Source of the DNA: a virus
Length of the DNA: 64,000 bases
Reading direction: 5' to 3' (one strand)
Virus genome (UHGV): UHGV-0164982
Positions 31,350-35,294 of the stretch are shown piece by piece. The position numbers and the translations under genes were made by a program. Every line of letters starts with the position of its first letter. The stretch's first letter is position 1. Under the pieces are notes generated by a model. It worked only from the letters and a program-made list of their open reading frames with translations. It searched no databases and had not been told where the DNA came from.

Positions 31350-32880
31350 CGTTCCCTAATACACAGACGGGGACAACCCCGTGGTGTCAGGCTTCTTAGG
31401 CCGCAACCATCATCAGATCATCGTTTGCATTTACTTTAATGGTCAGTTTGTGACTGCTCCCCGCCCTGTCGGGCGAGGCTTCCCACTTCTCAGGCCACAA
31501 CCGTCTGTGCGACGGATTTACGCTGGCCTCCATGGGCGGAGACGACGAGTCCCGCCGCCTGTAGTTCCAGTATTCCTTTTTGCCGGATGTTGAGTGCCGC
31601 ATTGATATCGCGGTCGTGCTCTGCTCCACATTCAGGGCATCGCCAGATGCGTTTATGAAGCGGCATTTCCGGCATTTTGTAACCACAACAATAGCAGGCT
31701 TTCGAACTGGCAAACCACTGGTCGAGTTTTACTAGGTGAACGCCTTTTTCCGCTGCCTTGTACTCCAGCTTTGTGATGAAGCTATGCCAGCCTGCATCAC
31801 CTATCGCTCTTGCCAGATTGTGGTTTTTCATCATGTTGGCTGTTTTCAGCATCTCGACAATTACCGCTTGGTTTTCGTCAACAATTGCACGAGAGAGCTT
31901 GTGTTGAAAATCAGCACGGGCATTAGCCACCCGTTCGTGTAACGCTGCCAGACGGATTGTGGCCTTTTTACGATTCGCGCTTCCCTTTTGCTTGCGGGAT
32001 AAGGCTTTTTGTTTGCGTCGCAGATTACGGCTGGCATTGATGAGATGGCGGGGATTTGCAATTTTTACCCCATCAGACTTGATGGCAAAGTGCGATAATC
32101 CCATATCTAGGCCAGTAACTGTTGATATCAACGTGGGTTTTGCCGGAGCTTCCATGCCATCATCACAGAGAATTGAAGCATAGTATTTCCCCGTTGCTGA
32201 ACAGGTGATAGTGATGCTTTTCAGCTTTCCATGAAGTTCACGGTGAAGGCGTGCTTCTATTAGGGACAGTTTTGGGATTTTGATGGCATTATCCAGCACC
32301 TTAATCCCGACACAGTGATAGCTCGATTGTTTTCCGTGTTTACGTTTAAACGTCGGGAACCGCGCTTTCAGCTTCGGATTAAAAAAGTTGGAAAATGCCA
32401 CATCAAGATTAATTACCGCCTGTTGCAACGCAATAGAATCATATTCTTTAAGCCATCCATACCTGCGGGATTTCTTTGCCACTGCAAGCAGCGGTTTCAG
32501 ATCGTTACGCGGACTTAAATTTACTCCATGTCGCTGGTAAGCATGTTTTTTGATGTGAAGAGCTTTGTTGTACGCAAAGCGCACTGCACCGAACTGGGCA
32601 TTGAGGTACTCTGCCTGTTCTGGTGTCGGGTAAATGCGTACTTTTGTTGCTCTTAACATAGTCACCGCTCATTGATACAGGCTTTTTATGCTAACACCGT
32701 AATGATTTTTTTAAAGCCCTGTTGGCTTTTCGCCTTATATACCCGCCCGCATTAGGCGAGGGTTTACGGCGTTTTTCGCTAAACCGCCGCAAAGTCGCTA
32801 ACCATGACGAAACCCCTGAAAAAAACGCCCACCCGAAGATGGGCAAACTGGATGGAAGCTCGTTACGCACTTCGGAGTTG
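31350..32880 (-). mobile_element. IS609-like element lacking tnpA (approximate ends)
   Basis: tnpB with no Y1 transposase ORF nearby; subterminal hairpin GAGTTGCC...GGCAACTC and terminator near 32820-32900; ends not mapped. Confidence 0.45.
31490..32665 (-). CDS. tnpB: TnpB, IS200/IS605-family (IS609-like) RNA-guided nuclease
   Basis: 391 aa, RuvC-like motifs and CxxC...CxxC zinc finger; closely resembles E. coli IS609 TnpB (InsQ) as I recall it. Confidence 0.85.
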   Translation of the reverse strand: MTMLRATKVRIYPTPEQAEYLNAQFGAVRFAYNKALHIKKHAYQRHGVNLSPRNDLKPLLAVAKKSRRYGWLKEYDSIALQQAVINLDVAFSNFFNPKLKARFPTFKRKHGKQSSYHCVGIKVLDNAIKIPKLSLIEARLHRELHGKLKSITITCSATGKYYASILCDDGMEAPAKPTLISTVTGLDMGLSHFAIKSDGVKIANPRHLINASRNLRRKQKALSRKQKGSANRKKATIRLAALHERVANARADFQHKLSRAIVDENQAVIVEMLKTANMMKNHNLARAIGDAGWHSFITKLEYKAAEKGVHLVKLDQWFASSKACYCCGYKMPEMPLHKRIWRCPECGAEHDRDINAALNIRQKGILELQAAGLVVSAHGGQRKSVAQTVVA

Positions 32881-33011
32881 CCACTTAGGCGCATGGTCAA
32901 CCTGGCAACTCGGTGGTTTGTCTGGGAGGACTAGGCCCAGCCATGCTTACCGCCGCGCCTGTCGCGGCTAACAGCTAAATCGCTCTAAAAATCACGATTC
33001 ATTGATTCGAT

Positions 33012-33039
33012 ATTACACTAATAAATTTATTAGAGCAAT
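33012..33039. promoter_or_regulatory. bipartite overlapping C1 operator-like sites just past the dmt stop
   Basis: AAATTTATTAGAGCAAT 17/17 at 33023-33039 overlapping ATTACACTAATAAATTT 15/17 at 33012-33028. Confidence 0.75.
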
Positions 33040-35294
33040 ATTGCTATAACGTCATGAGCAACACCACGAGTGTCTCCCTTACAAGACACAGAACGTCTGG
33101 CAAAAAGAGGTTCCACTCTGAAGCCACTGTCCTGATAAAGTTCTCTGATGTTTGGCGCGCCACTGTTAGTAATGAGAACCTTTGCACCTCGGCGATGAGC
33201 ATCCGTCAACAGAGACACCAGGCGTTTTTGCTCTTCAAACTTAAAGTCATGACCGGAATAGTTCGTGAACCCCTCTGTATTGGGGAGCGGTTCATACGGC
33301 GGATCGCAAAAGATGACATCTCCTTCTCCGGCAGCTTCAATCACCGCTGCAAAATCACCGCATACAAACTCAGACCGCCCTTCCGCACCGAGGAAGGCTT
33401 CCATCTCCTGTAATGGAAAATGCGTAGACTTATACTTCCCATACCCGACATTGAACTCACCGGCCTGGTTGTAGCGCGTCAATCCATTAAAACAATGTCG
33501 GTTCAGGAACAAAAACGCCGCTGCGCGATGTAAATCATCATAGACTTGTTTGTTAAACGCATTCCGTACTGCCAGGAATCCCTCCTGGGTGTTGTAGTCC
33601 AGGAAGAAACGATGTGCCAGAGTGATAAGTGAATGCGCCTCGCGTTGCAGAGTCTTGTAAAAGTTAATCAGGTCAGCATTCACATCATTTAGCAGATTTT
33701 CCTGATATCCGGCATTCATGAAGACAGCTCCGCCACCAACGAAAGGTTCAATCAGGCGCTTCCCTTCTGGCAAATAGCGAAAGATTTGTTCCAGAACACC
33801 AAATTTTCCACCAGCCCATTTGAATATGGGCCGTTCGAATTCTGCCGCTGGTTTAACCTTTCGCTCTTTTGTTTCACTCCCTTCTTTTTGCCGACATGCA
33901 GCCTTAGTAATCCGATCGCCAATCCAGCGCATTACTGGTATTGCCATACTATTGCCGATCGCTTTGTAACGCGGTCCGTCAGCTGCAAGCATCGCGGCCT
34001 CTTCTTCGCTTAAATCTGGATAGTGATTGCGAAGATATGCCAGTTCATCTGAATTAACTTTTTTACGCTTTTCCGTCGGGATCAACGTATGCCCATCAGG
34101 AAAACCTTGCAGCCTTTCACATTCGACAGGGGTAAGACGGCGGACAGCTACTTCTGCGTTTCTTACTTCATAGCAAACAGCTGTTGGATTTTTAGCCATT
34201 AGAGATGGTGAAGTATTCTTAGTTGCAGCATGTTGTGTACCGCTCATACGCTCAGGAAAAGCCAATGTAACAAGATGCTCATGGCTTTCTTGCTCACGTG
34301 CCCGCAATGTACCATGCCCTTCTGACCAAAAACCTGCTCCTGTGCTGCTAAAAACGGCAAGGTCAGTGGCATCTTTAAAATCTCTTGCCTTTACTGTCGA
34401 TGCGGTTTCATCGTCAATATATTCCCCAAATGCCGCCATCCTGAAAGCGTTTACGGCTTTCGTCGATTTCATACCGGGTGGCATGTCAGCGTGTAGGCAT
34501 GGATTTAGGCTTTCGCCACTGATTGCAGCGCCATTTGCAATAATGGCGGAAGCGATTTCCTTCTTTTTTCGGCTCGGCGCAATATTCCGGCGCACGCCTT
34601 CGAACTCAAAAAGTACCGTTGCGGGATCGAGGTCTGTTCGAGCACTTGCGACAACAAACACGCGTCGGCGTCGTTGTGCCACTCCGAAGTATTGGGCATC
34701 AAGGATTCTCCAGGCCACCTTTCGCTGCGGTCCATAAATACAACCACACTGCGGCCACTTTGGAGCATGGCAACCGGTTTTGACATCCCACCGCCAGAAC
34801 GTGTTACTTTTTCGTGATTCAGGTCGATCACCAGGTTCGAATGGCGCATCTTCTCCAGCCAATCCGGCAAGGAAACATCCGAACGCGTTGTCTGCTGATG
34901 ACAGGACTCCTGGGACATTTTCCCAGACGATAACTGTCGGTTTGAGGAAGGACTCAGACCGTTTGTCGTCAATTGCATTTGCAAGCTCCACATACTTCAA
35001 AGTTAGCGCGCCGCGTTCATCATCAAGCCCACCACGTAAGCCCGCGATACTGAATGCCTGACAAGGCGTACCCCCGACGAGCACATCAGGGGCTTCAATT
35101 TCTCCGGCCTGGACTTTTTGGGCGAGTTTTGTCATGTCGCCAAGGTTCGCGACATGGGGCCAGCGGTGCGCAAGAACGGCAGATGGAAAAGGCTCGATTT
35201 CAGCAAACCACGCCGGACGCATACCCAACGGTTCCCATGCAATGCTCGCGGCTTCAATTCCACTGCAAACAGATCCATAGCACAGCTCTCTCAC
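33030..35294 (-). CDS. dmt: bifunctional DNA methyltransferase Dmt (C5-cytosine MTase N-domain fused to Dam-like N6-adenine MTase)
   Basis: 754 aa; [12 protein letters not shown] and ENV motifs N-terminal; KWAGGK and DPPY motifs C-terminal. Confidence 0.85.

Follow-up and report, generated by a model that had tools for sequence, protein, structure and literature searches.

Identity and boundaries of the insertion sequence

A window of 64,000 nucleotides (nt) from the virus genome UHGV-0164982, to which all coordinates refer unless P1 is named, carries on its minus strand an insertion sequence (IS) with a tnpB gene, located in the leader of the ban operon known from phage P1. Based on the comparison with P1 and on ends that are common to about 60 relatives, the IS comprises 1,329 bp (31450..32778, minus strand), lacks a tnpA gene and is an ISEc46-related member of the IS200/IS605 family. 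Window sequence from 32779 upwards aligns with P1 at 97% identity and sequence from 31449 downwards resumes P1 from the very next base, which places the IS exactly between positions 4370 and 4371 of the P1 locus (L001), with zero duplication and zero deletion relative to P1. The empty site of P1 reads ...GCGGCGGTTTAG|AAACTGACCATT..., and its junction GGTTTAG|AAACTG is split exactly, the IS starting with CGAAAAACGCC... and terminating in ...GGGGAGCAGTCAC. The point of insertion lies directly 3' of the pentanucleotide TTTAG (32783-32779).

Insertion 3' of a specific tetra- or pentanucleotide without target duplication is typical of the IS200/IS605 family, and TTAG abuts the left end at dozens of independent loci. 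Also as in that family, terminal inverted repeats are lacking and both ends contain subterminal hairpins that are kept in the relatives; DNA folding indicated an imperfect hairpin at the left end (32762-32742) and a perfect 8-bp hairpin at the right end (31478-31459). According to folding and to alignment with relatives, the left end as a whole (32660..32778, minus strand) contains, in addition to its subterminal hairpin, the terminator hairpin of a former tnpA gene and a promoter-like stretch. The 5' flanks of relatives, compared at approximately 60 independent loci, end in TTAG, or in TCAG in the case of the ISEc46 subgroup, and the element always ends in ...AGTCAC, after which the flanks are unrelated. 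Left end and target tetranucleotide vary together: a TTAG flank is accompanied by ...GCCGTAAACCC... and the TCAG flank of the ISEc46 subgroup by ...GCCGAGAACCC.... The left ends of the two groups differ by GTAAAC versus GAGAAC near the left-end hairpin, whereas the right terminus AGTCAC is the same in both. In IS608, a segment of the left end guides the choice of the cleavage site, and the covariation of TTAG/TCAG with GTAAAC/GAGAAC is consistent with a similar DNA-guided recognition of the cleavage site by the left-end segment of the present element.

The original prediction had called the element in the region 31350-33045 IS609-like, which proved wrong, and the element itself ends at 31450, so that 31350-31449 is P1 DNA. 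IS609 (insQ/yncK of E. coli K-12) belongs to the same family and has the divergent arrangement of tnpA and tnpB that is also seen in full-length relatives of the window IS. However, membership in IS609 is ruled out by an identity of only 29% at the amino acid level to K-12 InsQ, by the lack of nucleotide similarity and by the ends, which are TTAT|...GTCAA in IS609 and TTAG and ...GTCAC in the window IS; the proposed mapping of the IS ends against IS609 (TTAT/...TCAA) therefore gives no match. IS609 has been reported as inserted in P1-like plasmids (PMC6906374). The lineage to which the window IS does belong is that of ISEc46. With the ISEc46 copy in phage RCS47 (FO818745) it shares 87% amino acid identity in TnpB, 81.6% nucleotide identity, the tnpA-less layout, the right terminus ...GGGGAGCAGTCAC, a conserved stretch upstream of tnpB and the residence in a P1-like phage. 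In contrast to the window IS, with GTAAAC and a TTAG flank, the RCS47 copy has GAGAAC in the left-end guide region and a TCAG flank, and it is inserted after repL and not in the ban leader. By the convention of ISfinder, elements count as the same IS when they share more than about 95% amino acid or more than about 90% nucleotide identity with the reference; the values obtained here are lower, and they refer to the RCS47 copy annotated as ISEc46 and not to the ISfinder reference.

Copies of the window IS that are 99-100% identical were found in 110 E. coli records, including at least one from a chromosome, and near-identical copies at other loci indicate that the IS has been mobile recently. 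A non-autonomous IS200/IS605 element with TnpB and omega RNA is an ordinary object, and identical plasmids deposited in GenBank already list the gene as TnpB.

An intact tnpB gene without its transposase gene

The open reading frame (ORF) on the minus strand at 31490..32665 encodes 391 amino acids when read from a GTG. An ATG at 32659, which is the start conserved among relatives and chosen by RefSeq for identical plasmids (WP_039022915.1), gives a tnpB coding sequence (31490..32659, minus strand) of 389 amino acids. The Pfam domains HTH_OrfB_IS605, OrfB_IS605 and Cas12f1-like_TNB were detected in the protein, and a phmmer search against PDB sequences gave a full-length alignment to TnpB of ISDra2 (PDB 8EXA, 8H1J) with an E value of 3.6e-79. 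In this alignment the residues D191/E278/D361 of the RuvC triad of ISDra2 TnpB have conserved equivalents in D185, E269 and D351, and the zinc finger C322/C325...C341/C344 aligns as well. The claim of an intact tnpB with RuvC and zinc-finger motifs therefore holds, apart from the two residues by which the conserved start shortens the protein. Judging from these motifs, the nuclease is apparently active.

A Y1 (HUH) transposase TnpA, otherwise characteristic of the IS200/IS605 family, is encoded neither in the element nor elsewhere in the window, where a tblastn search with the TnpA of a relative gave no match (best E value 1.5), and only 119 nt separate the left end from the start of tnpB. In full-length relatives the left end is located about 550 nt upstream of tnpB, and between the two lies a divergent gene for an IS200-type Y1 transposase with an HVHLL motif. 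Of the left end of the window IS, the initial 69 nt align to those relatives and are followed almost directly by about 40 nt that are conserved upstream of tnpB. Judging from these alignments, tnpA is cleanly deleted, a form that is common to RCS47 and other tnpA-less copies. As TnpA is absent here and present, in divergent orientation, in full-length relatives, the window copy is a non-autonomous, tnpA-deleted derivative within the ISEc46 lineage. This agrees with the earlier description of a solitary tnpB without a Y1 transposase gene. A tnpA remnant, which had been named as the sign of a simple decayed IS, was not found in the window, and it is the comparison with full-length relatives that reveals a tnpA-deletion derivative. 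Of 5,426 complete E. coli genomes, 450 carry tnpA genes of the ISEc46 family, and mobilisation of the IS in trans is therefore conceivable.

Predicted omega RNA, guide and target

When the last 180 nt of 55 relatives were analyzed with RNAalifold, a structure of 34 base pairs was obtained, 17 of which showed compensatory changes, extending approximately over 31609-31450. This predicted omega-RNA scaffold (31450..31609, minus strand) overlaps the 3' end of tnpB and the right end, including the hairpin at 31478-31459 and the terminal AGTCAC, and the flanks become unrelated directly past ...AGTCAC, as would be expected for a TnpB (OMEGA) system. No omega-RNA family of Rfam matched at E values up to 10.

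In ISDra2, which was taken as the model, the DNA that directly follows the right end on its 3' side serves as guide, and the transposon-associated motif (TAM) equals the target of the transposon. By analogy, we infer a TAM of TTTAG (32783-32779) and a 16-nt guide (31434..31449, minus strand) with the sequence AAACTGACCATTAAAG, which when joined give the uninterrupted P1 site exactly; in a longer form, the predicted target of the window TnpB would be TTTAG+AAACTGACCATTAAAGTAAA. The window system thus resembles that of ISDra2 in the position of its scaffold, in its flank-derived guide and in its predicted role, i.e. the cutting of the empty donor site. It differs in the TAM, which is TTGAT for ISDra2 and presumably TTAG for the window TnpB, and in the lack of tnpA, as ISDra2 is autonomous. 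If the IS were excised by a TnpA acting in trans, or if an IS-free relative of P1 were present, TnpB would cut the empty site, and recombinational repair would then, following the ISDra2/TnpB paradigm, restore or copy the IS.

The C1-controlled ban promoter upstream of the insertion

On the other side of the IS, the gene dmt (33030..35294, minus strand), encoding a Dcm-Dam fusion methyltransferase of 754 amino acids (Pfam DNA_methylase and MethyltransfD12; 97% nucleotide identity to P1 dmt), ends inside a bivalent C1 operator, Oban a/b (33012..33039). A pattern search with ATTGCTCTAATAAATTT, which we take to be the C1 operator consensus, gave 10 operator-like sites in the window, compared to 0.01 expected. 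The operator pair had been predicted as perfect (17/17), which is true for Obana (33039-33023, minus strand), whereas Obanb (33012-33028, plus strand) agrees at 15 of 17 positions, as it does in P1. The assignment to the ban operon promoter was confirmed, since the operator is identical to Obanab of P1 over 28 of 28 nt and since both hexamers of the sigma-70 promoter P1ban (33010..33038, minus strand; -35 TTGCTC at 33038-33033, -10 TAATAT at 33015-33010) are those of P1 (AF234172). As annotated in P1, the promoter shares sequence with the operator and with the last codons of dmt. The c1 repressor gene is located on the same replicon (1939..2787, plus strand), its product being 98.9% identical over 283 amino acids to P1 C1 in a tblastn search. 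With 17-bp operators lying over a sigma-70 promoter, the locus has the make-up of a C1-controlled operon, and the match to the P1 operator and promoter, the ten operator-like sites and c1 together identify the window as a P1-like phage-plasmid.

Between promoter and IS lies the counterpart of the 'dicF-like region' of P1 (32809..32910, minus strand), for which coordinates were transferred from the P1 annotation and complemented by a terminator scan and folding; the DicF model of Rfam did not match this region even at E values up to 10. It ends in an intrinsic terminator (32845-32826) with an 8-bp stem, a TTCG loop and seven T residues, the T-run extending to about 32818. Transcription from P1ban across this region would yield an RNA of about 185 nt that ends at the terminator. 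Both the terminator hairpin, which had been placed at about 32820-32850 between operator and tnpB, and the location of a co-oriented tnpB about 350 bp downstream of the operator were thus correctly foreseen, with 347-353 nt between the operator edge and the start of tnpB on the minus strand.

The left end of the IS begins about 225 nt downstream of the estimated start of transcription from P1ban (about 33003) and 40 nt past the T-run. According to the P1 annotation, Obanab/P1ban controls ban, which is located 2.6 kb downstream, past the dicF-like region and its terminator, two tRNA genes, tciABC and trnI. As the same terminator precedes the tRNA genes and ban in P1, some read-through must occur there. 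In the left end of the IS no terminator was found on the sense strand; the hairpin present there has A residues after it and belonged to the lost tnpA as its terminator. Given the co-orientation, read-through transcripts would therefore carry tnpB and omega RNA in sense.

A tmRNA-like module split by the insertion

The P1 leader stretch at the insertion point is more than spacer. It was matched in a distant blastn search by 258 phage records of unrelated families, in which it is always unannotated, and which include Ackermannviridae, N4-like, T1-like and Akira-like phages and a Vibrio phage. By a scan for its pattern, the same module was recovered from at least 120 IMG/VR contigs; many of these are lambdoid prophages and have it upstream of the S holin gene. 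In the window, the module extends over 32815-32779 and, beyond the IS, over 31449 to about 31255 (minus strand), and in P1 over positions 4407-4231 (approximate, minus strand) of L001.

The 5' segment of the module has the form (A/G)GUUUUCG...GCGACUUUGCGG...UUUAG|AAAC and is followed by about 20 single-stranded nt. Its counterpart in the window (32779..32815, minus strand) is GGGGTTTCGTCATGGTTAGCGACTTTGCGGCGGTTTAG, ending in the TTTAG that served as target. Further downstream there is a frame resembling the tag of transfer-messenger RNA (tmRNA) at 31396..31428 (minus strand), GCA AAC GAT GAT CTG ATG ATG GTT GCG GCC TAA, which would encode ANDDLMMVAA and for which the Rfam model tmRNA_permuted gave a sub-threshold match (E value 3e-4). 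Among the loci compared, this frame always consists of 10 codons and a stop, starts with GCA AAC GA and ends with GCN UAA. It occurs in 32 sequence variants encoding 18 peptides, among them ANDDLMMVAA, ANDDVVLMAA and ANEEMYLAVA, with the consensus A-N-[DE]-[DEN]-x-x-[LMK]-x-[AV]-[AP]-stop; 31 of the 32 variants have L or M at position 7 and, likewise, 31 have A at position 10, and variability, measured as entropy, is highest at third codon positions. The tag of E. coli tmRNA is ANDENYALAA. The module also contains two H-type pseudoknots with covarying stems. As in tmRNA, a tag-like frame with a resume-like codon is followed by pseudoknots.

However, no alanine-accepting tRNA-like domain (acceptor stem, T-arm, CCA) was identified. 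With ARAGORN, neither P1 nor four complete phages nor about 120 loci yielded a tmRNA, and the tmRNA models of Rfam reached only 13-33 bits on the module, below their gathering thresholds. A canonical tmRNA at the insertion site was rejected on these grounds. A tmRNA gene census of 2014 listed, among phages, only mycobacteriophages and Bacillus phage G (PMC4131195), and no description of the phage tmRNA-like module turned up in Rfam or in the searchable literature.

The IS lies between the G and the A of UUUAG|AAAC, 21 nt upstream of the resume-like GCA codon, and therefore leaves the tag frame cut off from the 5' segment. What is left of the P1 ban-leader RNA region (31115..31395, minus strand) comprises the pseudoknot region, with a deletion of 35 nt relative to P1, and then a long stalk helix. 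The conserved tmRNA-like phage RNA split by the IS is more unusual than the IS itself, and the wider interest of the insertion site lies in this RNA, which with its tag frame and pseudoknots and without a tRNA-like domain is present in P1, in lambdoid prophages and in several virulent phage families.

In many phages the module is flanked by long inverted-repeat 'stalks' (CACAACAGGTAAGAGCATT ... variable insert of 50-90 nt ... CAGTGCTCTTTCCGTTGTGG), and some of the inserts hold T-arm-like hairpins. One stalk is kept in the window (about 31335-31255, minus strand) and in P1, with a compensatory T-A to C-G change between the two. Putative candidate roles for the stalks are those of processing stems or of Y-RNA-like units.

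Occupied and empty sites in P1-like plasmids

PLSDB was searched with a 60-nt probe across the empty junction and with a separate probe for the left-end junction of the IS. The empty site, TTTAG+AAACTGACC..., was present in 562 plasmids and the left-end junction in 18. The IS occupies therefore about 3% of P1-like plasmids, whereas about 97% have an intact target. In IMG/VR, the right end of the IS was joined to this site in P1-like contigs only (five), and no recurrent targeting of the site in other phage types was found. Other phages with the tmRNA-like module match the protospacer only in the first 4-10 TAM-proximal nt and are for this reason unlikely targets of TnpB.

The 18 occupied plasmids are 99.8-100% identical over the IS and its flanks, except for three P1-like plasmids (e.g. 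NZ_CP020936, positions 3001-4329 of locus L003) that carry an IS of 94.4% identity with identical flanks and ends. The interior of these mosaic copies (IS positions of about 126-1231, covering the whole tnpB) is 98% identical to a copy in the leading region of F-type plasmids, and they are still open reading frames annotated as intact TnpB. An independent re-insertion at the site was rejected, as the differences are limited to the interior and the ends are unchanged, which argues for gene conversion between ISs.

The 35-nt deletion in the pseudoknot region (about 31375; approximately 4260-4295 of P1 L001) was found in exactly the 18 IS-bearing PLSDB plasmids and in none of about 560 IS-free ones. 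It is accompanied in the same 18 plasmids by a stem change from GGGG to GAGG. As flanks, IS ends and the 35-nt deletion are common to the occupied plasmids, the IS appears to have inserted just once, in a lineage that forms a minority. The downstream half of the module is 82% identical to P1, compared to 97% for dmt, and together with the deletion this suggests, on the basis of a single lineage, that the module decayed after its disruption by the IS.

Relation of tnpB to the C1 switch

We consider it likely that the locus represents a tnpA-deleted IS of the ISEc46 lineage that inserted once into the C1-repressed ban leader, with an apparently active TnpB and omega RNA whose coupling to C1 is incidental. 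The identity and the boundaries of the IS, its intact motifs, the covariation of the RNA pairs, the frequency of the target site and the identity of promoter and operator with those of P1 are direct observations that enter into this reading. Nuclease activity, TAM, expression and read-through are the parts that we infer. Basal expression of tnpB would come from a promoter-like stretch in the left end, TTTAAA (32715-32710)-N16-TGtTAGCAT (32693-32688), which was found by eye; the region upstream of tnpB is conserved in the family across many unrelated contexts, with TTGATA-N16-TAAAAT in full-length copies. Upon inactivation of C1, P1ban transcripts reading through the terminator would add sense transcription of tnpB and omega RNA, and a coupling of TnpB and omega RNA to C1 by this route is plausible. 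It is probably a by-product of the landing site and not an evolved design, because the insertion appears to be a single event, because its orientation follows the target strand and because the family keeps its own tnpB-upstream region.

Several points weigh against this interpretation. The promoter-like stretch has 8 of 12 consensus positions and an extended -10 and falls below the threshold of the scanner, and read-through may be small, as the upstream terminator, with its 8-bp stem and T7, seems strong. The TAM preference of the window TnpB was assumed to equal the target of TnpA, and mobility depends on the host, since the window is devoid of TnpA. The 18 occupied plasmids all seem to belong to one lineage, and the intactness of the IS may reflect recency and not selection.

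Alternatively, the arrangement might be functional, with TnpB and omega RNA placed under C1, silent in lysogens, switched on at induction or infection and acting in lytic growth or superinfection, e.g. against IS-free P1. The co-orientation with P1ban at such a short distance past its start and past the T-run, the terminator that in P1 must be read through for the tRNAs and ban, both annotated as Obanab-controlled, the left end devoid of a sense-strand terminator and the presence of a perfect TAM and protospacer in 562 IS-free plasmids would all fit such a design. Yet apparently one insertion event accounts for the IS in about 3% of P1-like plasmids, the region upstream of tnpB is conserved in all contexts of the IS family, and a strong terminator intervenes; moreover, in IS200/IS605 elements the orientation of an insertion is set by the strand of the target, here TTAG, and not by transcription. 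We regard this alternative as unlikely. An extension of it would be a repressor-gated 'drive' in the P1-like population, in which loss of C1, i.e. induction or infection before immunity is set up, would boost TnpB-omega RNA against the TTTAG+AAACTGACCATTAAAG site of about 97% of P1-like plasmids and so eliminate IS-free relatives or convert them through recombinational repair. Such a drive, which we think improbable, would cut at a functionally important place, a site in the conserved tmRNA-like RNA, and the spreading insertion would also knock out that module.

That the IS is an inert passenger, a recent copy that is intact for lack of time to decay and whose TnpB and omega RNA have no role in the phage-plasmid, would agree with the near-identity of the occupied plasmids over IS and flanks, apart from the three with a converted interior, and with the lack of tnpA in the window. 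It seems distinctly unlikely to us, as the catalytic residues and the RNA pairs are all intact, near-identical copies elsewhere point to recent mobility and the three mosaic copies have remained open frames annotated as intact TnpB. Next to no credence is given to a domesticated, nuclease-dead TnpB that would act like TldR as an RNA-guided repressor of the ban-leader locus. A solitary tnpB without transposase in a regulatory region might call this to mind, but the RuvC D-E-D triad and the zinc finger are conserved, both transposon ends are intact, copies of 99-100% nucleotide identity exist at unrelated loci and the guide is simply the flanking DNA.

On its own, the IS matters little, being one more tnpB-only IS in a phage-plasmid. 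It does constitute a natural test case, in which the predicted target of TnpB is exactly known and present in hundreds of sequenced P1-like plasmids and in which the upstream promoter is switchable with temperature-sensitive C1. Therefore, TnpB-dependent retention of the IS, homing or exclusion between co-resident phage-plasmids would be measurable. Literature searches on TnpB in P1-like plasmids and on ISEc46 revealed no description of this insertion.

Remodelling of the ban operon and other RNA genes

In P1, the ban operon has the order Obanab/P1ban, dicF-like region, tRNA genes, tciABC, trnI, ban and dbn. The window keeps the operator, the promoter, the overlap with dmt, the dicF-like region and, of the leader that the IS interrupts, about the first 335 nt past the insertion point, whereas the genes for tRNA-Asn and tRNA-Thr, plp, upl, tciABC, trnI, ban and the 5' part of dbn are missing. 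In tblastn searches, ban, tciA, plp and upl were not found in the window, and no tRNA genes were found in it either. Instead, in the remodelled stretch (29348-31115), the IS and the P1 leader are followed by an integrase fragment (at about 30801-30913), an ORF of 36% GC and a remnant of dbn. The ORF (29710..30645, minus strand) is co-oriented with P1ban and encodes 311 amino acids with the Pfam domains pP_pnuc_1 and pP_pnuc_2 and a PADLOC match to Aga_Nuclease (E value 1e-62), by which it is related to Argonaute-associated nucleases. This ORF may now be a C1-controlled cargo of P1ban. No Argonaute gene is present near it.

Elsewhere in the window, Rfam models matched at the gathering threshold two C4 antisense RNA genes (4211-4421 and 52144-52350, minus strand), one of which adjoins an isrK-like RNA and the other its a1/b1 target, and a sok antitoxin RNA at 48512-48686.

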